DNA of 63,449 nt, filler included, from Rhabdomonas costata (taxonomy: Eukaryota): assembly GCA_019059605.1 (NCBI GenBank). It is 32 parts of 32 records of this genome, joined end to end, with 100 filler letters (N's around TTAATTAATTAA, not from the genome) between each part and the next. Parts side by side here need not be neighbours in the genome. Positions count along the whole stretch, not along the records: positions 39,722 to 41,607 come from JAHMHO010007763.1; 31 more parts are not named here. One strand, written 5' to 3'. Made by a program: the position numbers and the translations under genes. Under the pieces are notes generated by a model. That model ran no database searches and was not told the DNA's origin. It was given only the letters and a program-made list of their open reading frames with translations. Below are positions 5,859-42,403 of the stretch, piece after piece (positions within the stretch are counted from its first letter, which is position 1; every line of letters starts with the position of its first letter).

Positions 5859-6492
5859 ACACAANNNNNNNNNNNNNNNNNNNNNNNNNNNNNNNNNNNN
5901 NNNNNNNNTTAATTAATTAANNNNNNNNNNNNNNNNNNNNNNNNNNNNNNNNNNNNNNNNNNNNGGTTTGTTTGAGAATGGGTTGGGAAGCGGCCTTAAG
6001 GCGAGACGCGTGTAAGTTGAAGGGTGGGGCGACTTTCAGGGGGCAGTGCACGCTACCGCAGTGCTCAAGTAGCATTTGTAGTCGTTGCTGGGAGATGTCC
6101 GTCCTCCCGCTTTGGACGGGCGGGTTGACCTTGGGTAAGGCGGCTGAACACTTCTAGGAGTCTGTAGGTATCTGATTAGAGCTGAGAGCGGGACGAAGTT
6201 TACTGGTAATCCCTTGCCTTTAATTTGTGCTTTTTTCATCTTAGGGTATGGGAAAACATTTCATCTGGTGGGTTGTGTGGCTCGTTGCAATGAATTCTCC
6301 GAGTTGGTTTGTGTCGCTACCATGGGTGCGTAATGGGAAAGAATGGATAACCCTCATTACAACGGTGTACGTTATCTCGTGGAACATTACATTGATACAG
6401 GGAGGTTTTATCTGCTCCCAGATACCTTTCAGTCTGGGCTGTAACATTGGATTTTGGCCCTTCTTTGTGCTATGCTTTCAGGCGTCCAAACG

Positions 6493-7719
6493 ATGATTGT
6501 GATCCGCTCTTTCTTGATTTTTGCGCTTTCGGTGTTTCTTTGTTTTCTGGCATGGTATGCTTTGCGAGCTGACTTGAAGCGTTCAAAGGTCACTTCCTCA
6601 TCACGGCCAGCCTCACCTACTTCCAGACGCAACGTTGCGGCGCCCCAGTCGGGCAAGAAGCCACCGCTAAAGCACTTATTCCGACAAAAACTATGGAACA
6701 AAACACAGTCCACACCCATTTCCCCATTCTCTGCATCTCAAAAATCGCTGGCGCACTCGGGTAAGTCTTCCCTCGGGCAAAAGCTGGCTCAAGTGCAACC
6801 TGGGCATCCCACCTCTGCAGCTTCTCCTCCACGCCCGCCGCCTTTTATTGACGAGGAGTTTCTCCGCCGTCCTCCCCTGAATTCCAGTGTTGTGTGGTGC
6901 TCGCCTCACCTGTACGGAAACATCGACTTTGAGCGTCTGGATGAATGGCAGATATACTATCAAGCGCTTGGGCTCCAGCAGGCCTTTGTATACGTCAGCG
7001 AAGTTACTCCGCCGGAGGTCCTTGCACATGTGAAGCGGCGGGGGCCGTTCTTTTCTGCGGTAGAATTCGACGGGAAAGGCGAATACTATGGCCAGAGGAA
7101 AGCAATATCCTTGTGTTACCAATTGGTCAGGGAGCGGAAGTTTGATTGGGCGTTTTTCGGCGACCTGGATGAGTTCTTGTGGTGGAAGGGACCGCACAGG
7201 ACGATTAGAGAATGGCTGGACACGTTTGGTGATGCGCGGTGCATCACACTTGGAAAGCGGTTTCACTCTCGGAGTGTAATCCATCCCCGTTACTGTGGAG
7301 TTCTGGCCTTTCCATTCACCCCACCGGTGCCGTATTGTTACATGAAAGGTGTTGGTGGACGCGTTGAGCTCTGTGACGATTGGGCAGGCAGGCGGAAGTA
7401 CGTGATTCGCCCGAACTTAGTTGGAGGTGCCCTCACCGTTCATCAGTGCCCAGGGCCACATGTTGTGGTTAAGACCTCTGAAGCGCATTTCAAGGAATAT
7501 CGGGGGCATCTGCCCCGTGGTCTTTTTCATGTTCCGTGCACTGACGTGCGATCTTTTCCCCAACCTGGTAACGATGCGTCCATACCGTGGTACCGGGAGT
7601 CGCATGGCACTGACGTCCTCCTACAAGACAGGGACCTTCCTGAGTTTATGAAGGTTCGGTTGCCGCGTAAGCAATGGGCAAGCTACAATGCTTGTAGATG
7701 CTCGCACAAGCTGCTGTAG
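6493..7719 (+). CDS. Intronless type II membrane glycosyltransferase, GT92/DUF23-like (GT-A fold)
   Basis: N-terminal TM anchor, Pro/Ser stem, EWQIYYQALG, YYGQRKAISLC, WAFFGDLDEFL (DxD motif), GRRKY; stop TAG. The start could also be ATG 6472. Confidence 0.8.
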   Translation: MIVIRSFLIFALSVFLCFLAWYALRADLKRSKVTSSSRPASPTSRRNVAAPQSGKKPPLKHLFRQKLWNKTQSTPISPFSASQKSLAHSGKSSLGQKLAQVQPGHPTSAASPPRPPPFIDEEFLRRPPLNSSVVWCSPHLYGNIDFERLDEWQIYYQALGLQQAFVYVSEVTPPEVLAHVKRRGPFFSAVEFDGKGEYYGQRKAISLCYQLVRERKFDWAFFGDLDEFLWWKGPHRTIREWLDTFGDARCITLGKRFHSRSVIHPRYCGVLAFPFTPPVPYCYMKGVGGRVELCDDWAGRRKYVIRPNLVGGALTVHQCPGPHVVVKTSEAHFKEYRGHLPRGLFHVPCTDVRSFPQPGNDASIPWYRESHGTDVLLQDRDLPEFMKVRLPRKQWASYNACRCSHKLL

Positions 7720-17879: not shown

Positions 17880-18624
17880 TATTATCTTTCATTCCTTTTA
17901 AACATTTTTTAACAGTCTCTTTAATTTTGTCTAACGTGCATTCATAAAATTCTCTGTTGTTTCTGTATCTATATTTATACAATAGTGATTTAACGCATAA
18001 TTCTAATTGTATTGGACAATCAACATTGATATAATATAACACATCTACATTATCAACGATAGAAGTATTATATGTTCCTGTCCTCTCATTCATTCCTTCA
18101 GATATTCCTATTTTTAATATTCCATCTTTGTTTGTTTTAATAACATAAAATAATCCTCCTTTTGGATATTTCTCTTTTTTTAAATTATTCTTTATTTTTT
18201 CATATTCTTTTTGGATATAATTTAACATATTTTGAACATTTTTTATTTTACTGTCATATTTTTTCTTTAATTCGTAATATCCATATTTACGAATTGAAGG
18301 AATAACATCCCGAGTTATCCATGATTTAAAATCTTTACATACTTTTAAACGACAAGATAACAATAAAGAATATAACCCAGATTCATTAATATACACTGAT
18401 TGAGGATGTTTATCAATATTGTATTTGATTTTTATATTTTTTAATTGAATTTTATCTATTTTATCAACAAGTCTAATTATGGCATCTTTTGGATTTTTAT
18501 ATTTTAACACTTTACATAATTCTTTTGCATTAAACCAGATTACTTGTTTGTTGGCAATTATGATATCAATTTTACCATTGTTGAATACAATAAAGCCATT
18601 TTTTGTGTCAATAATATTGTTCAT
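17880..18624 (-). CDS. Bro-N + T5orf172/MUG113 (GIY-YIG-like) domain protein, giant-virus type, 3'-truncated
   Basis: WFNAKELCKVLKYKNPKDAI...YINESGLYSLLL...FKSWIT.DVIPSIRKYGYY (Bro-N), then FYVIK...LKIGIS...R..TYNT...LE.CVK..L..YR...NREFY. The gene is very AT-rich and intronless. Confidence 0.9.
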
Positions 18625-18668
18625 TATATAATACGAACATATTATTTTTGATGAAATATATATGTCAA

Positions 18669-18719
18669 ATAGCTATATATAAAGGGTATGGATAAGCCAT
18701 ACCCTTTATATATAGCTAT
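18669..18719. repeat. Perfect 23-bp internal hairpin upstream of the Bro-N gene
   Basis: ATAGCTATATATAAAGGGTATGG-ATAAG-CCATACCCTTTATATATAGCTAT. It is internal to the contig and has imperfect complementary flanks. Confidence 0.9.
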
Positions 18720-18789
18720 AATATTTTTATCAAAAAACATTAGAATCATATCTTAGACATACAGTAGGGGTTTTACCAGTAATTGATAA

Positions 18790-19350
18790 ATTGAGTATAT
18801 TCAAAAAATAAATTCAAAAAAGCCGAAATGTAATTGGGTTCACATTACCTTTGGTAATTACTTATGTGTCTAATAATGATTCTAATTATATTTTTAATAT
18901 AATCATCTTTACTCATGTTTCTTATTATGTTTTTGAGTATATTTTCTAAATATACATTACTAATGTACCTATTGTTTTGGGTCAGCATGGCCTTTGGCCA
19001 TGCTCAAATCCGGTCTTTACTTATGTGTCTAATTATGATTTGAGTATAATTATCTTTACTCATGTTTCTGATTATATTTTTGAGTATATTCAATAAATAT
19101 ATTCAAAATTAATCTTACTAATGTACCTAAATATGTCTTTGGATTGCATGGCCAAAGGCCATGCTCATTTCCGGCTTTTATTTATGTGTATAATTATGAT
19201 TCAAGTATAGTCATTAAATATGTATATATTAGTCTTTACTTGTATTTCTGATTATATTTTTGAGTATATTTAATTAATAAATTCAAAAATAACTTTACCT
19301 AAATATGTTTTGGGGTGAGCATTGCCAAAGGCAATGCTCCAAATGGTCTT
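18790..19350. repeat. Array of about 3.5 degenerate direct repeats (140-173 bp), each with a palindrome richer in GC than its flanks
   Basis: Shared blocks TTATGTGT.TAAT.ATGATT, TCTTTACT and TTGAGTATATT; palindromes at 18844-18858, 18984-19004, 19146-19164, 19317-19339. Confidence 0.9.
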
Positions 19351-19513
19351 ACAAATGTATATTCATTAATTTATATATGTATTTGAGTACATATATAAAA
19401 AGCCTGATAATATATGTTTGTAGACAAAATTATTGTAACATTATATGTATGATATATTATATTTAAAAAGAATCAAGATGATATAAAGATTAAAACATTA
19501 TAAAAAAATAAAA

Positions 19514-19762
19514 ATGAACGAACTAACGAAATTTCTAAAACAATATGAATGTGAGAAGGAGGCAACACATACAATGATGAAATGTAAAAAATGGATAAGC
19601 CCCGGAAAATGGCAAATACCCAAAGAAAGACAAAATGAATTTTATACATTATATTCAAAAGAAAAAGAATATGCATTTATTGAACGACATGATAAAGATA
19701 CATCACCAATAATAATAGATATTGATATAAATCAAGAAGATGATATAAGGAGAACAACCACA
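19514..19762 (+). CDS. N-terminus of NCLDV D5-like primase (AEP/primase-polymerase domain), truncated by the contig end
   Basis: FL..Y...THT.M...PGKW.IP...EFY.LY...Y.F.ER...SPIIIDID (AEP motif I hhDhD); clearly homologous to the ORF starting at 36829. Confidence 0.75.
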
Positions 19763-33666: not shown

Positions 33667-35752
33667 NNNNNNNNNNNNNNNNNNNNNNNNNNNNNNNNNN
33701 NNNNNNNNNNTTAATTAATTAANNNNNNNNNNNNNNNNNNNNNNNNNNNNNNNNNNNNNNNNNNNNAGCCAGCCACTTCAAAAGTGTAGCGGTATTTGTC
33801 CCACTGACCATCTGAAATGGTGGAGCCAAGAAACTTACAGAGTCATCGCGTACAAATGACAAACGTGTGCGCAAAACTGATTCAAGAATGGCTAAATGGA
33901 TGTGTTGTGCAGAGTAATACAATTTGCAAGCAAACGTACAGGGGCTCAGTAAACTCAAAGCAGTATGTGGAACTACAGCAACCAGACGGTCCAACAAACC
34001 ATGAGTCCCGCCAACGTTTTAAGCTGTAATCCTAAAAAGGCCCTACGTAGTATCAAAGAGCCTGAGATACTGGAACTAGAGAAGCTATGCCAAGAGAACC
34101 CTAATCATGAACCAAAACGATCTAATTAGCCCAATTGAGTGTGATGCCCTGATGCTCAAAAAGTGTAAAGAGCTCGGAAAGTGCTTGAGAAAGTATCGCA
34201 GGTGTGCCAATCAGATGGCCGTAAGGGGAAAGAGAGCCCAGAGATAAGAAAGCTGGCCAAGTGGGTCACCTTGCTGCACCTTTGCGTGAAGGAATCACTC
34301 CAGACATTGTATACAAGGGGGTGTGTACAGTAACACCAGTCATCCAAATGGACTATAGCGGAGCGCGCTTGCAAATCTCTAAGAGAAACAAATCTCTGTG
34401 AAGTGAGTTGAAGAATTCTATCTAAACTAAGCAAAGACTCCCTGAGTTGTTTGAACGTCAATCGCGCACCACGTGCACTATCATATTAAAGACGTTGGTA
34501 TACAAACACCTACATAACATTGTGCCAGGATGGAGGTGAGTAACTGTGACTGTTCTACAAGCAAGGCTTTTCACACACACATCCTGAGCGTTTCGTCCAC
34601 ATAATTTAGTTTGTTTGTTAGGTAAACTATGTCAGCCTAACCACTTTACAACATCCAGATAAACCTGCAACGTTTTTGTCACAGATAGTGTCTTTTTACA
34701 ACAAATGAAGCAAACTCAGAGTGCAAGTCATAAGATAACTCAAGAATTACTGCACAGTGTGACTTCAGGATTGCCTAAACCACCGGAGACAACTTGACAG
34801 AAAGACCAAATTGAATACTTGACAAAATTTAGTAAAAGAGTTTACTCTTAGTTGACTCTTAGTTGACATAATACGACGGGGACAACAGCCAAATTGTTGC
34901 CTTATGTGATTAAATTTTAACAGTTAAAAGATGAATGAATGTTTAGAGATCTATTATCTATAGTGTACGCCGCAGGAGAATTGGCTTTTTTCAAGTGGTA
35001 TAATGTAGCTGGTCAATACGCAAAGAAGAAGATACTTTGCCATCAGACTTGGGATTATAATGTAGTGTCGAGGCTTGAAGACCCAAAATTTCCAATTCTA
35101 CCACAAGCATTTTTTCACGAGAGTTAAACTTCCACAAGGCACGATGTTTTAAAACGAGACGCTACAGCGGTATTTGTACGTTAGAAGCTATTAGATATAC
35201 AAAGTGATGTCCAAGAACACGCGGACGCCAAAAAGGCCATGAACAAAATAGCGTCGGATCGTGTTTTGCCGAGACCCACTTGGAAGTTTGAGAAGCCAAT
35301 ACACTCTTCCATGCAGTTGGATATGATAAGTTAAGAATATGCCACGTTTTCTGGAATCACAGATTTCTGAACTTGCAAGATACAGATGACTAGTTAAATG
35401 CGCCCAAAGGACATGCTTTTGGGTTCCAAGTGCAACTGCGGTCAGTTGTGCTTGCTCGATTGTTTGCCGTGTCATCCACACCTTCTTGGGCAGCCAATGT
35501 CCAAGCAAGAGCGGTAATGTTTACCTCAGCACATCACATGCTAATAAAATCAGCTGTATACAGATCACAATAAAATGCATTGGGAGATGTAAATGATATA
35601 GGCCCTATTCTCCAGCGAAAATTGGAGATATGCTAATGCACACCACACCCANNNNNNNNNNNNNNNNNNNNNNNNNNNNNNNNNNNNNNNNNNNNTTAAT
35701 TAATTAANNNNNNNNNNNNNNNNNNNNNNNNNNNNNNNNNNNNNNNNNNNNT

Positions 35753-36584
35753 TCATTTGAAAGAGTATATATAACACATCAAACATTTAAACCTATAGAC
35801 TTTATACTACAATATAAACAAAATGAAACCTATAACATTATACAAAACTATTCTAATATCAATGTTTTTAACGTGACAGAAAAAACCAATTTTGTAACCA
35901 ACACTACAATGACTACAATAACTGGAATGACACATTTTACAAACCTAATAAATCTTCCACAAGGACACACATTTGTTGTTAGCCCCACAAGCAGAAGTGG
36001 CACCAAAGGAGGATATATTGATCTACCAGTAAATTGTAACACAGACAAATATTATAATAATATATGAAATACAAACAAAAATATATTGATTATAAAAACC
36101 AACGTGGAGGTACTAATTTAATTACATATGATAATAAAGTATTTAATGGCTTTCTACCCTCATCATGGAATGTAATACAACCTTTACATAGACAACAAAT
36201 AGAAGAAAACAATGAAATTTTTGTTGAAATACATGAACACGGAATTCTTTTTTACATAGCAAAATATCTTATCAAAAACAGAACTGTTCCAATATATTTA
36301 ATGTATAGACAAGATGGAACCTACAATATTATTATGGATCTTACAGATAGTAAAGGTAACCCGTAAATTTAACAAATTGTGTAAATCCAACTTCATCCAA
36401 GCTGCTTTCAAGTAACACAGAATTTATAGATCATTATGCACATGATGATGGGTACTATGATGCAAAATCTGGTCATTATAAGGATCATAGCGTGGAAAAC
36501 CAAATCCGAGATCATCCTAGCAAAACATGTTTTCAGACTCATGGACTTTTTAGTCATGGAATATGGTACAGACTGACCCGTTAG
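35753..36584 (+). pseudogene. Frameshifted giant-virus-type gene carrying the YxxKYxKYKxKY...GG motif
   Basis: Restoring one base at 36059-36060 gives DKYYN[K]YMKYKQKYIDYKNQRGG. Restoring one base at about 36362 extends the frame by 73 codons to TAG 36582-36584. Confidence 0.75.
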
Positions 36585-36738
36585 TAAATCGTCAATACAA
36601 TTAGAATTTATATTTAGCATATATAAAAGTTTCGAAAGATCCATTATATTCTTATATACACCTACATATATATTTTGTGTTAGTAACTCTTGTAAATCAA
36701 TTTGTTGTTATCTACCACTTAAAATTTATTTTTATAAA

Positions 36739-36774
36739 TTTTTATCAGAAACATAACAATGTTTCTGATAAAAA
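36739..36774 (+). terminator. Mimivirus-type 3' hairpin (hairpin rule)
   Basis: Perfect 16-bp stem TTTTTATCAGAAACAT-AACA-ATGTTTCTGATAAAAA downstream of the + strand gene. Confidence 0.65.
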
Positions 36775-36779
36775 ATTGA
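36772..36779 (+). promoter_or_regulatory. Mimiviridae early promoter octamer AAAATTGA
   Basis: Exact motif about 50 nt upstream of the primase ATG at 36829. Confidence 0.7.
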
Positions 36780-36828
36780 ATTTTTAAAGTAATATATTTT
36801 AAATTATTCTTATTATTCTTATTATATT

Positions 36829-37635
36829 ATGACAAAAATGAATCCTCTACTTGGTTTTTTGTGTCATTATGAAAGTTCTGATTCTTTTAGTCATACTTTA
36901 ATGAAATGTAAATATTGGATTTCTCCTGGTAAATGGAGCATACCTCTTGACAAATTACATGATTTTTATTCTTTATATGCTATTTATAACAACAATTATT
37001 CATTTGTTGAACGACATTTGGATTACATTTCTCCTATTGTTATTGATCTTGATATTATTCAAGATGAAAATTATAGAAAAATCGATCATCTTTTTATTTC
37101 AAAAATTATTGACTTGTTTTATGGTGAAATTTTATAGTTCGTTACTTTAAATGAAACTAATAGTTTGTGCTATGTTTTACAAAGAACAAATATGCATATA
37201 ACTGAAAAAATAAATATAAAGATGGTATACATATTCATTTTCCATATATTGTAACTAAATTTAATTAATCAAATTCTGTTACGTAAAAATTTATTACATA
37301 AAATAGAAGGAATAAAAAATGAATATAATATAAGTAATATATAATTCTATAAGTAATATATAATTCAAGTAAGATTTGTAATGATATATTAAGTATAAGT
37401 GAACAAATTGAAAAAATGTATGATATATATAATAATATAGAAAACAAAAAACAAGATATATGTGATGATATAGAAAATAAAAACAAGATTTATATGGATG
37501 AAAACAAATTTAAAGAACTATTAGAATTATTGCCAGAAAAATATTATGATGATGAAATTTTGTGGTGGAAAATAGGAGCCATTTCTTATAATTTATCTGT
37601 AAATGATCACTTATATGATGCATATAAAAATTTTA
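36829..37635 (+). pseudogene. Disrupted NCLDV D5-like primase (AEP + PriCT-2)
   Basis: Motif I SPIVIDLD; in-frame TAG 37135-37137; motif II KDGIHIHFP (from 37218) in another frame; a further shift before QILLRKNLL; no recognisable motif III region; PriCT-2-like LLELLPEKYYDDEILWWKIG. Confidence 0.8.
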
Positions 37636-40200
37636 NNNNNNNNNNNNNNNNNNNNNNNNNNNNNNNNNNNNNNNNNNNNTTAATTAATTAANNNNNNNNN
37701 NNNNNNNNNNNNNNNNNNNNNNNNNNNNNNNNNNNGGTTGGGGGGGGGTAACGGTTACCAGTGGTAACAGAAACGGGCTTAATTTCTTTTCTAAATTAAC
37801 TTAAAACGGTCACGTAGAGTGTGCCAGCGCTCTTGAAATGACTGTATTTTTGTGTAACGGAGATAGGTAAGCTTTGCCAGTGCCCCTGGATGACTGTTTT
37901 TGCTCAGCAACTACTGCTGGCTAAGGGGTCGCCAATGGCTGCGATATAGGCGGACGAGTGGGACAGCATTAAATTAGGGGCAACTTTTTAATATACGCTC
38001 CCATAGAAAAAATTGTTACCACTACTCCCCTACCCCCAACTTTCGTTGCACCTGCAGAGGGGTGCACGGTCAAAGTTTCTGGGCGTGCGTGCGGACTCGT
38101 TTCACACAATCAAAAAATTGAATTCATTATGAGATAGATGGTAAAACAGCATTTGATTAATGTGAGTCCATATGAACGGCCCGAGGGAGCATCGACACAA
38201 TGCTTCATCATGGGATGTAAGGCAGTCGGCGTGGATGTGCTACTCTCAAGGGATAACCTCGGGTTTGGGGGGTTTCTCCACTCAGAGCTTCGCCTTCCCG
38301 TCCTTCCCAAGTGGATTGAGTCTCGTCGGCCACAGCGGCCTTCCTTGTAGGACGAGGTGGTCGCCTCATATTGTGTATTTTCTTGTGTCAGCCTTCTCTT
38401 TCTCCATTGTACAGTGTAGTGTACCCTTTGGGGCGCCTACGTTTGTGTCCGTGTGTGTGTGGATGGGTAGCTGTGCGTTTGCGTGTGTCCAGCGCAGTCT
38501 TTTGCTTTCGCTGTATTTACCTGCTCTTCTTTTACATTTCCTTGCCCCAATTCCTCGTTCGACACCCCCGCATTTTTTTTCATGCTCGCGAGCAGCCCCG
38601 CTGTTTTGGCCGGGTTGCGCGTTAGTAGTTTTTCCGAGCTCCTTCGTCCCTGCATTGGTCGGGGAGAGAAGCTTCTCCTCCTGGAAGCGCTCAGAGTGTA
38701 AAAAGGCGCAATCCGGTCGAAATGCAGTGTGAGCGTGGTTATGGTGGCGGTAATCCCCCCCTCCCCCTCTTTCTGCTGTTTTGCTTTGCTTCTGAGCGAC
38801 AGCATCGTTGGGTTCCGATTGGTTTTTCGCGGTGTTGAACTTCAAGTCTTTCGTGGTTTCTTTTGGCAGATGCGGAATTCCTCTTCAGGTCCTCGGGACT
38901 CTTTGGATCCGCATTTAATTCATCATGGTAGCTATCTCGTTTGGATTTGCCCGTCTTCTCCTGTGCCCTTAGGCACGTACCTTCGGACCCAGATATCACC
39001 TAATCACCTGTTTTGCATCCTTCGTGCAGCGTATGGAGCTTCTTAGCTACCACGTTTCAACCCAAAAGCTACCGTATCCCCCCCAAACACACACACACAC
39101 ACACACATTTTGGTCCGTCCATATCTGCACCCAATAGGCCGCGAAGGCGTCCGAGAAGTTACCAAAACACACCCGCGGTTTTTTCTTCGCAAAGATTACT
39201 TTTTGGCCGCTTGCAAAGACAAAGATTTTTACCAAAACCAGTTGGGGTGTGCGTAGCGAAAGAAAGCTCCGCTGGGGGAACGTGAGTGCACAGCATATCA
39301 CAGGAACCGCACTTGATTAGGCTTTGCCGGCACGATCGGGCGATTTTGACCCCGCCATTCCCGGGCTGCGGGGGTTTCATAGGGTCATCATTCGCGACTG
39401 AAACGGAGTCAGCTTCAGAACCTGCCTCCAGGAGAGAAGAGAAACAACCCTATCTGTCGCCGGGGCAGTCCTTCTTCCAAACGTTCGTTTCAAAAAGGAT
39501 GGCTTTCTGACCAACGTACGAGTACCTTTCTCCGCCTCCTACGGACATATAGCAAGAATGAAGGCCTTCCGAGGCAAACGGGAACTCCTCCGCGACCGGC
39601 TTCTCAGGAAGTTGGACAAACNNNNNNNNNNNNNNNNNNNNNNNNNNNNNNNNNNNNNNNNNNNNTTAATTAATTAANNNNNNNNNNNNNNNNNNNNNNN
39701 NNNNNNNNNNNNNNNNNNNNNGTGTGGGGTTTTCAATCAACGTCTTGGTAGAGCCAACCCACGGGTATTTGAATGGGTATTGAAGGAAGAATGACGAGCG
39801 TAGCTAGTCATGACGACGTAAGAGTGGAGCTTCTGAGCGTATGCGAAGATGCGACTATCATTATCTATCACCACGTCCATATTATCGGTCACTCGAATAA
39901 TTACTCTCTTCTTCTGTTCTTTCCGCCAGCATAAATTGCCTTCACTCACCGTTGCATACACGTTACGAGTGAGATGGCATTGTACACGCGGGGCATTTAC
40001 GCTCTTACCTTTACGTTATCAACGTGATCGACAGAAAGCGTATCGGAGGGCATGTCGACGTCAGGGGGCATGCCCGTAGAAGGAATAAATGGCATCGCAG
40101 ATAGAAGGCCTTTCACTACATACCTGGTAGGAATGCTAACATCACCATACACTATCTCATCTCAACATCCATTTCACTCTAAACCCACCTCAACACACCA

Positions 40201-41255
40201 TTACAGAAGCGTAAGACGCAGTAGAGACAGGAACACATCAAGCACAAGATACGCACTAACAACATCAGCCTTTCCACACCGTAACACCAACACACCAGAA
40301 GCGCTAAACTATCACTACCACTACACCACAACTAACACGCCAACACACACTTCTACACTAGCAGCAATGACACACAACACTACCAGACACACGCATACAC
40401 TACAGAAGAATAAAAAGAAGAGGAAGAGACACAAACACAGCACAATCACAGCACTACCAGCAACAGCCACGCTACAAGGACACCACAGCACGAGCCCCTC
40501 CACTACAACCCCACACCACCCGATTAGCCCAACCAACAACAGCACGAACCACACACTACCACACTAGCCCACTACAACGACTCCAACACAAACACACACC
40601 ATGCACTGACCCTCCAACACCTACACACAACTACGCCCTAAACCAGCATCCTGACACACTAAGCACGATACTACCACAGAAACAGCGACAGCAACAAACA
40701 CACCCAATGCATGACCCTGACGCTCACCCACCGACCTACCCTATCTACAAGCCCCCCCCAATCAACACCTCCAGCACAGACGAAGTAGACGCAGCACCTT
40801 CCATGGACCACACTAACGTACCCGCAAACTAGAAACAAGGACCCACTACAGAGACTCGGCATGGTTGACCTCCAGACAGATGACCGACAAGCATCACATA
40901 TCCAACACCCAAAGCCACAGGCTACGCACCACCAACAGCCCCATAATCTCCAACACTAGCCACCCTACGCACACTAGCACCACCAAGACCCATCGTAACC
41001 AGACCCAACGTACGACCCACACATCCTCCAACAACACCTTCCTCAACACAACCACCAACACCTATGCTACCAGCGTACCATACTCCTCCACACAACATAC
41101 AGACAAAGACATAGAAACAGACACAGCCATAGAAACAGAATAAGAAGAAGAACACACGCGCGAGGAACCCATAGCACCAGCACCGCCCATAGTACTTATC
41201 TCAACACCTGCCCATGGAGCCACCGTAAACCCACACCAAACAAGCACACAATCGA
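40201..41255 (-). other. Additional hydrophobic coding pieces, possibly complex I (nad2- or nad4L-like) fragments
   Basis: GFTVAPWAGVEISTMGGA (about 41180-41235), WSMEGAASTSSVLEVL...IG (about 40735-40812) and LWCPCS...VIAASVEVCVGVL (about 40320-40490) loosely follow nad2 motif order. They are very divergent. Confidence 0.25.
40820..40930 (-). CDS. cob: Probable C-terminal piece of cytochrome b
   Basis: LWLWVLDM[TGA]CLSVICLEVNHAESL[TAG]WVLVSSL resembles my recollection of the divergent diplonemid cob C-terminus; not verified by alignment. Confidence 0.4.
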
Positions 41256-41259
41256 CACT

Positions 41260-41480
41260 GCCGTAGAAAGGCAAGAACTACCACTCAGGATCAATCAACG
41301 CAGGAGTGACCATAGGGTTAGCAGGCACATAGTTATCCGGATGTACGAAGCAATCTTGGTCCCAGAAGGCACACATACCCAGAATCAGCGCAGGAGTACA
41401 CACGATAGCAGCATCACAACCCAACAACAGTGGCTAGAAGTTCACCCGATCAGACCTACCGACGACCAACCCTGCACCAA
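41260..41480 (-). CDS. cob: Mitochondrial cytochrome b, piece containing the ef loop and PEWY
   Basis: RSDRVNF[TAG]PLLL..D...HPDNYVPANPMVTPALIDPEW[TAG]FLPFYG corresponds to DKIPFxP...HPDNYIPANPLVTPxxIxPEWYFLPFYA. Confidence 0.93.
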
Positions 41481-41489
41481 ACACCCCCC

Positions 41490-41596
41490 ACATGACCCGT
41501 AGAATTCACCAAATGCAACACCAACAGATGGACAAGCACGAGCACCGTAAGCACCATGGGTAAGAGGAAATGCACGCAGAAACACCGATTCACAGT
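41490..41596 (-). CDS. cob: Mitochondrial cytochrome b, helix D piece (different frame from the next piece)
   Basis: TVNRCFCVHFLLPMVLTVLVLVHLLVLH corresponds to TLNRFFSLHFLLPF..AL..IHL..LH, with both heme-ligand His residues. Confidence 0.92.
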
Positions 41597-42403
41597 AACC
41601 ACAACCCNNNNNNNNNNNNNNNNNNNNNNNNNNNNNNNNNNNNNNNNNNNNTTAATTAATTAANNNNNNNNNNNNNNNNNNNNNNNNNNNNNNNNNNNNN
41701 NNNNNNNGGGGTGTTGGTAGGGAGGAGTAGAGGTCAATATGCGGTGACGGGGTAGGGTGAAGAAATTACTGACTGGGAAAGATTCACAGAGCCCGGATGC
41801 ACGTTTTAAATGGGTCTGATCTGTTGTTGTGATCGGAGAAGGTTAGCGAGGCGATATGTTCGGGGGGTGGGGGTTGGGGGTATTTGCAACGACTACGGGT
41901 TGCTGGTTTTGCAGCCAAGTGTTCTTTTCGTTATGATATGCAGCAGGGATGGTTACCTTCCAGTGACTTTGTATTTGATTTTGTCTGCTTCCATTTTGCC
42001 TGTTAGATTTACATTTGTCCATTGATACTTAGGCACGCTTATGACCGAGGGATGTTTATTGAAGAAACGAATATTGGGGAAACGTTTTGCATCATCCCTA
42101 AGAAGAGAACAGATACTGGCCTTTCCATGCCCTTGTTTTCTTCGCACTTGTATACGTCTGGATGAGACCGGTGGTGGACCCGCCCTGGCCAGAACAGAGT
42201 GGTGGATCGGAAAATGACGAGACGGTCCCCCCCCCGCCCCGTTTCCCGGAGATTCCGATTCGACTGTGTAGGGTGATAATCAGTGATGACTCGCCTGACC
42301 ACCTGACCCCTTGAGAGACCAAGATCCTCTCAGTAGGTACCTGTTTCGTAAGACCTAACATTGGCCCTTCAGGAACTCGAGCTGGAGTCACGAGCTGGAG
42401 CTC

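Follow-up and report, generated by a model that had tools for sequence, protein, structure and literature searches.

A 63,449-base stretch of the draft genome of the euglenid Rhabdomonas costata (NCBI GenBank assembly GCA_019059605.1; hereafter the window) includes one contig with a copy of the mitochondrial cytochrome b gene, cob, that is crossed by in-frame TAG codons. We suggest, with a probability of roughly 0.7, that this contig holds a damaged euglenid mitochondrial cob copy from a lineage in which UAG is read as tyrosine, and that its TAG codons were inherited and are not the product of decay. On comparative sequence evidence, it is very probable that UAG specifies Tyr in this lineage, and the data support reassignment of UAG to Tyr as a far better fit than random decay. 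The case for the code rests on intact relatives of the window copy and on a published report on R. costata; the window alone is insufficient to make it. UAG=Tyr in euglenid mitochondria is in fact already known through that report (Soukal et al. 2021, Sci Rep 11:13070, PMC8219788). In its accessible text, mitochondrial contigs of R. costata carry cox1, cox2, cob and part of nad4, the four genes show 'many UAG' where other euglenozoans have Tyr, neither RNA editing nor introns are indicated, and the mitochondrial code is concluded to be UGA=Trp plus UAG=Tyr. The first-pass annotation of the window, made from the DNA before any search, had proposed the Tyr reading as a code without a known case in euglenozoan mitochondria, and on that point it had been anticipated in 2021. 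Our literature search, whose coverage ended at subscription papers, found no report of UAG=Tyr in a euglenid other than PMC8219788.

Read on the minus strand, the contig yields three alignable pieces of cob, which we call segments A, B and C (Table 1). With TAG read as Tyr, the C-terminal domain of cytochrome b, Pfam family PF00032, is matched at 33.8 bits (cut-off 20.7; E 4.2e-8). The best match among solved structures is 8iuf_QC (E 1.8e-17), in which Tyr occupies both columns where segment B has TAG; 8IUF is a code mentioned in a paper on the Euglena gracilis respiratory chain. The 5' part of cob is missing, the gene running off the contig end at 41607, and PF00033, the N-terminal domain, stays at 20.4 bits, below its cut-off of 27.2, because only about the last 30 positions of the model lie on the contig. 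Segment A is nevertheless 63% identical to residues 77-122 of protein P0069 by tblastn, and its VHFLLPMVLTVLVLVHLLVLH retains all three conserved His, at the invariant alignment columns H86, H100 and H105. We take these conserved residues of the helix-D segment to be haem ligands. Segment C, which the first-pass annotation had offered as a probable C-terminal piece, is genuine: it matches residues 321-352 of protein P0002 at 62% identity (E 3e-10). The identification of the gene as cob, likewise made there, stands on the PF00032 and 8iuf_QC matches.

Relatives of the window copy were drawn from two sources. A protein search of a large set gave, among longer proteins, 68 cytochrome b sequences, the closest seven being P0001-P0007, and a scan of metagenome contigs with an alignment of relatives matched 486 stretches, 417 of which were confirmed and 80 kept. 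We examined the 34 closest of these 80 loci (L001-L034); the other 46, left aside, were at 39% identity or less, except for the short match L076 (62% over 71 residues). At 29 of the 34 loci cob has no in-frame stop-like codon, and at five such codons stand in an otherwise full-length, unshifted cob. These five loci amount to three distinct genes: L001-L003 (one gene), L005 and L006. Our reference set consisted of 24 stop-free euglenid-type cob sequences, made up of 19 loci and P0003-P0007; the near-duplicates L009, L010 and L012-L015 and the partial L026 and L032-L034 were left out of it. Among the 34 examined loci the closest relative of the window copy is L006, with 79% identity in DNA (268/341 plus 81/102 bases) and 87% in protein. 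In a maximum-likelihood tree of 28 rows the window copy joins L006, then L001, then L004 and L005, all in one clade with a Shimodaira-Hasegawa-like approximate likelihood ratio (SH-aLRT) support of 100. The three stop-carrying genes share with the window copy both the clade and TAG at Tyr columns, and differ from it in that their cob is intact and full-length. L001-L003 overlap at 99.9-100% identity into a single cox1-cob-cox2 array, all on one strand and of 62-63% G+C, whereas mostly single-gene contigs have been reported for the mitochondrial DNA of E. gracilis.

The distribution of TAG codons over the alignment carries the argument for Tyr. For each gene we used a hypergeometric test of TAG codons falling on columns in which Tyr is the commonest reference residue. 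All three alignable TAGs of the window do so, and only 8 of the 143 aligned columns are of this kind (P = 1.2e-4). Both TAGs of L001 (Tyr in 24 and 19 of 24 references; P = 2.6e-3) and all three of L006, which also has one TGA (19, 9 and 24 of 24; P = 8.8e-5), fall on such columns, as do five of the six in L005 (22, 19, 24, 9, 24 and 7 of 24; P = 8.6e-7). The three intact genes together have 11 TAGs, 10 of them on Tyr-commonest columns; adding the window gives 13 of 14, spread over eight distinct columns of which seven are Tyr-commonest and four have Tyr in every reference (24/24). P0001-P0007 have Tyr in 7/7 at both invariant-Tyr TAG columns of the window and in 6/7 at the third, the NF_P column, where P0004 has Met. 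At the eight TAG columns the four clade members tabulated (L001, L004, L005 and L006) alternate between TAG and TAT or TAC, and never use Leu codons. The window copy itself also uses TAT (41331-41329, in DNY) and TAC (41265-41263, in PFY), and the near-invariant PEWY motif is present in it as PEW[TAG], provided that TAG is Tyr. The first-pass annotation fared well in these respects: its four stop-like codons are where it placed them, on the minus strand and in one frame, TAT and TAC are used as it said, and the columns that it called Tyr-compatible have Tyr as the commonest reference residue at all three TAGs (Table 1).

Two of the three window TAG sites are common to L006, and the manner in which the two copies differ shows that the frame containing them has been maintained. 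Over 141 codons there are 23, 7 and 62 differences at codon positions 1, 2 and 3; with TAG taken as Tyr and TGA as Trp, 55 of the codon changes are synonymous and 16 non-synonymous. Therefore, this frame has been under purifying selection. L005 differs from L004 in the same way, by 84, 46 and 198 bases at the three positions, and is therefore a selected gene. The TGA of the window copy corresponds to TGG in L006, inside a 29-residue stretch that is otherwise identical, the protein being identical over WLWVLDMWCLSVICLEVNHAESLYWVLVS, and Trp is therefore the simplest reading of it. We consider UGA=Trp the most likely assignment in the window copy; the column is a variable one in the 24 references (V 10, S 3, T 3, L 3, Y 2, I 2 and C 1). 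Codon counts in 17 stop-free euglenid-type cob genes (among L004 and L007-L031) gave no TGA, and Trp is always TGG in these genes, in contrast to the description of TGA=Trp as universal in Euglenozoa.

It could be argued that TGA is Trp here and TAG a plain stop, the TAGs being nonsense mutations in a decaying pseudogene or nuclear insertion of mitochondrial DNA (NUMT), where TAY becomes TAG in one step under a bias towards G+T. The copy is indeed damaged and its strand strongly G+T rich, and among the stop-like triplets of the G+T-rich tract TAG leads with 37 occurrences, against 21 of TGA and 5 of TAA. A G+T-driven strand also favours mutation from TAY to TAG, which weighs against our reading, and the window alone could therefore not separate reassignment from decay. 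The relatives can. Decay of the window copy does not account for TAG sites that it has in common with intact L006, nor for the TAGs in the full-length, unshifted cob of L001, L005 and L006, nearly all of them on Tyr-commonest columns, nor for their presence in L005, a gene under selection, and the identical code has been published for a euglenid in the accessible text of PMC8219788. We regard nonsense decay as very improbable. The preference of the first-pass annotation for codon reassignment over random decay is thereby upheld, through intact genes (L001-L003, L005 and L006) that carry TAG almost only at Tyr columns.

Several further observations weigh against the Tyr reading. Each of the four solved COX2 chains shown, the best match 8iuf_C2 among them, has Leu where cox2 of L001/L002 has its sole TAG, and one of the TAGs in L005 falls on a column whose commonest residue is Lys (Tyr 7/24). 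L004, itself a clade member, is free of in-frame TAG, and a TAG stands exactly at the end of its cob, in the expected place. The part of cox1 on L003 has no TAG in 375 codons. Moreover, if TAG is Tyr and TGA is Trp, the window frame runs open for 436 codons, and no TAA occurs around the point where cob should end. Downstream of cob, L001 has no TAA, TAG or TGA for 274 codons, the next stop-like codon in L006 is a TAG after 33 codons, and L005 has none in the 37 codons up to its contig end. The cox2 gene lies at 2455-3300 of L002, where its TAG stands in ALQG_FSGYCAELCG; it is the only TAG found clearly off a Tyr column in a conserved motif. One might conclude that TAG is a sense codon but not Tyr, or not only Tyr, for example Leu, as in some green-algal mitochondria. 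The cox2 alignment is what such a code would give, and at the NF_P column Met (7) and Leu (5) stand beside Tyr (9) in the 24 references. However, a Leu code would have to place 13 of 14 cob TAGs on Tyr-commonest columns, half of the eight distinct ones being Tyr in 24/24 references, and would sit poorly with the four tabulated clade members, in which TAG alternates with TAT and TAC and no Leu codon takes its place. We give this alternative next to no weight.

Although the Tyr reading appears well founded, the window copy itself is probably a non-functional, pseudogene-like remnant, judging from its alignment with relatives. Segments A and B are in different frames owing to a 2-base gap relative to L006, and no one uninterrupted frame runs through them. 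Directly after PEWYFLPFY the copy lacks IRAIPHKALG, a stretch whose R, I, P, K and G are invariant in 27/27 other rows, and a 19-base block close by (41252-41234) matches L006 at 19/19 bases, yet lies out of frame. In PLLLGRD, Cys stands in place of the invariant Arg. The end branch of the window copy is 0.16, against 0.022 for L006, and amino-acid changes polarised by L001 number seven in the window copy only and two in L006 only. Against damage, this excess of seven to two is not significant, 24/25 invariant columns are kept within the alignable segments, and the indels of +3, -50 and -7 bases sum to a multiple of three, which preserves the downstream frame; both indels could be assembly or amplification errors. 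A working cob would then lie behind the contig, its 2-base gap and 54-base loss being errors of a thin, fragmentary assembly, or the gap being crossed by +1 ribosomal frameshifting. The bias of substitutions to third positions agrees with this, as does the place of the 2-base gap, beside a G6 run and in a variable loop, in a window whose contigs are only about 1.9 kb. Such a gene would, however, have dispensed with residues that every other cob row keeps and would read a block identical to L006 out of frame, and no stall codon or other known frameshift signal was apparent on reading the sequence. We consider a working gene unlikely. The first-pass annotation had set its code against the case of a decayed copy. 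As to the copy, that case has gained from the frameshift and the lost invariant motif; the code inference nonetheless stands, with intact relatives carrying TAG at Tyr columns. The frameshift near 41480 and the loss of the stretch after PEWYFLPFYG had both been missed there, as had the truncation of the gene at 41607 and the fact that the window is a chain of 32 contigs joined by linkers.

RNA editing might instead repair the transcript, by turning UAG into UAY or by inserting bases at the frameshift in the manner of kinetoplastids or diplonemids. Two inserted bases could mend the frameshift, but the 54-base loss is beyond editing back. We know of no editing that converts purines to pyrimidines at third codon positions, which also counts against this explanation. 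The sister groups of euglenids do edit their mitochondrial RNA heavily, according to the accessible literature. In contrast, no indication of editing is reported across the four R. costata genes in the accessible text of PMC8219788, and that of Dobakova et al. (2015, PMC4700960) describes a total absence of mitochondrial editing and trans-splicing in transcriptome data of E. gracilis. Editing thus strikes us as highly improbable. The break after PEWYFLPFYG also brings to mind a diplonemid-style gene module or a kinetoplastid cryptogene. We rejected this idea: the contig itself carries the C-terminal part in frame, and in the relatives cob is one contiguous gene.

Our reading of the contig as a damaged copy from a UAG=Tyr lineage suggests the following history. 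The copy would stem from the euglenid clade that includes the metagenome genes L001, L004, L005 and L006, and its TAGs would go back to a functional ancestral gene that used TAG and TAT/TAC interchangeably for Tyr. Two losses would later have put the copy out of action: one of 2 bases, which shifts the frame, and one of net 54 bases, with which the start of helix F (IRAIPHKALG) disappeared. Decoding of UAG may depend on an imported tRNA-Tyr able to pair with UAG and on a mitochondrial release factor that spares this codon, and termination may take place by means other than a nearby DNA-encoded stop codon.

The nearest comparable system is the R. costata mitochondrion of PMC8219788, which, in the accessible text, resembles the window in being from a euglenid, in a cob with UAG at Tyr positions, in UGA as Trp and in a fragmentary draft assembly. 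It differs in that cob is complete there, whereas the window copy has a frameshift and no IRAIPHKALG. The tyrosyl-tRNA synthetases of R. costata are reported in the same text to be unrelated to those of euglenophytes. As cited in the accessible text of PMC8219788, UAG=Tyr is also found in the mitochondria of the calcareous sponge Clathrina clathrus, together with UGA=Trp (Lavrov 2013), and of some Labyrinthulea (Zihala et al. 2020). Both share UAG=Tyr with the window lineage, and Clathrina shares UGA=Trp as well but also has CGN=Gly; since both are unrelated to euglenids, the origins of UAG=Tyr must be independent. The cob, cox1 and cox2 of E. gracilis (PDB 8iuf chains) are the best solved-structure matches, but E. 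gracilis, unlike the window lineage, is said to use TGA=Trp without reassignment of TAG. Ile, Asn and Tyr abound in its cob protein, whereas the window strand is G+T rich with 50% G+C. In the accessible text of PMC4700960 (Dobakova et al. 2015; Spencer and Gray 2011 cited there), the mitochondrial DNA of E. gracilis has pseudogenes and short gene fragments beside full-length genes, and no tRNA genes. A damaged cob copy is therefore ordinary for the group.

Table 1. Features of the cob-bearing contig, in window coordinates
Feature	Position	Strand	Remarks
Assembly contig, 1886 bases	39722..41607	.	Bounded by artificial linkers; holds the cob finding
cob segment A, helix-D region, VTVNRCFCVHFLLPMVLTVLVLVHLLVLHLVNSTGHVGG	41480..41605	-	PF00033, E 4.9e-4, 20.4 bits; cut by contig end
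Frameshift site, 2-base gap relative to L006	41478..41481	-	GTG--TTTGG against GCTTTCGG in L006; adjoins G6 run
cob segment B, GRSDRVNF[TAG]PLLLG...PDNYVPANPMVTPALIDPEW[TAG]FLPFYG	41260..41475	-	PF00032; 8iuf_QC; 79% nucleotide identity to L006
TAG at NF_P column	41434..41436	-	Tyr in 9/24 references, the commonest residue; TAG in L005 and L006; TAT in L001 and L004
TAG at PEW_ column	41278..41280	-	Tyr in 24/24 references; TAC in L006, L001 and L004; TAG in L005
Deletion scar	41233..41259	-	+3, -50 and -7 bases relative to L006 (net -54); directly after FLPFYG; VIRAIPHKALGIAIMAV lost
Unalignable G+T-rich middle, 112 codons	40924..41259	-	Between segments B and C; one TAG (41064-41062)
cob segment C, SLWLWVLDM[TGA]CLSVICLEVNHAESL[TAG]WVLVSSLRVR[TAG]	40810..40923	-	P0002 match; 79% nucleotide identity to L006
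TGA in LDM_CLS, read as Trp	40894..40896	-	TGG in the closest relative, L006
TAG at ESL_W column (NHAESL_W)	40846..40848	-	Tyr in 24/24 references; TAG in L006; TAC or TAT in L001, L005 and L004
TAG ten codons past the last conserved Tyr (WVLVSSLRVR[TAG])	40813..40815	-	Column mostly gaps in references
G+T-rich tail, gene not recognised	40158..40809	-	Skew persists to about 40158 (about 1450 on the reverse complement)
Contig end of ordinary base composition, 436 bases, gene not recognised	39722..40157	.	

Two further in-frame TAGs fall outside the alignable columns, one in the unalignable middle and one at 40815-40813; the latter either encodes a further Tyr or closes the reading frame. The middle is a region that is also variable in the relatives, but shorter there, and it contains an 18-base tandem pair at 41099-41134. 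A minus-strand frame at 40700-41305 containing GGQP was tried as the C-terminus of cob and rejected, with no PDB match at E up to 10. Searches further down the contig for a second, degenerate IRAIPHKALG or cob 3' end gave chance-level matches only (tblastn E 0.58-2.7). About 270 bases downstream of cob, a 16-base stretch at 40568-40583 repeats the stretch at 40842-40857 that encodes ESL-TAG-W, with 88% identity; one of its frames reads LESL[TAG]WASVVV, and it is possibly the remnant of another cob 3' end, although the match is at chance level (tblastn E 0.58). We also sought an intact fragment from the same organism with the 71-residue stretch that follows PEW[TAG], in a set of 5.8 billion proteins at lengths of 39-125 residues, and obtained no candidate. 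A scan of genome contigs with P0001 gave 134 pattern matches, none of them confirmed.

The window consists of 32 contigs of about 1.9 kb each, chained by 31 artificial linkers of the form N44-TTAATTAATTAA-N44, so that any feature crossing a linker is an artefact. Among these contigs only the one carrying cob has a strong strand skew: its plus strand has a GC skew of -0.34 and an AT skew of +0.40, and its minus strand is made up of 664 T, 629 G, 310 C and 283 A (50% G+C). Openness of a frame was dropped as evidence of coding under TGA=W and TAG=Y; on this A-poor strand, openness extends over 433-484 codons in two of the three minus-strand frames, and the open cob frame is therefore no evidence of coding. 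Neither the G+T-rich tail nor the unskewed end of the contig yielded a Pfam family, from four frame stretches and two open reading frames, respectively (six translations in all). The unskewed end may reflect a join to nuclear DNA, may be non-coding sequence from a mitochondrial chromosome, or may be chimeric. The contig has no match elsewhere in the window, and Rfam returned no match at gathering scores over the window as a whole.

Other parts of the window are of a different nature. Two contigs (17880-19762 and 35752-37635) have 24% G+C among contigs of about 50% G+C, and encode a Bro-N plus T5orf172 protein and two N-terminal domains of AEP_C962R-type primases. They look like sequences of giant viruses (nucleocytoplasmic large DNA viruses, NCLDV), either integrated or co-assembled. 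On the plus strand at 6445-7716, an open frame of 424 residues has a glycosyltransferase family 92 domain (PF01697, 37.5 bits), and its nearest Atlas clusters are all eukaryotic; it looks like a piece of an ordinary nuclear gene.

The environmental relatives may lead further than the window copy does. L005 is an intact cob at positions 107-1201 of a 1314-base metagenome contig, with six TAG, one TAA, three TGA and 13 TGG codons. Its TAA stands on a column with Tyr in 24/24 references and corresponds to TAC in its sister L004. All three of its TGA codons are TGT (Cys) in L004, at columns with Cys in 24, 13 and 2 of 24 references, and its Trp is always TGG. We tentatively raise the possibility, doubtful as it still is on the strength of these alignments, that UAG=Tyr extends across an environmental euglenid clade and that L005 uses a code with UAR=Tyr and UGA=Cys, having no dedicated stop codon and terminating at mRNA ends. 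If so, the window lineage would represent an earlier stage, in which UAG is Tyr, UGA is Trp and TAA is absent around the cob end. Our literature search on mitochondrial codes combining UGA with cysteine and UAG with tyrosine gave nothing on euglenids by title.

Gene callers that use translation table 4 or 11 truncate genes of this kind; P0001 and P0069, for example, begin at an internal Met directly after a TAG=Tyr codon. The contig in the window, being a damaged copy, should not be used to define either the gene or the code. What is added here to the published code is independent support from intact environmental genes and the spread of the trait across a clade, and L005 points to a mitochondrial code that possibly lacks stop codons. 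UAG=Tyr belongs with the rarer code changes, and the euglenid case bears on how codons change their meaning in organelles that import all of their tRNAs.

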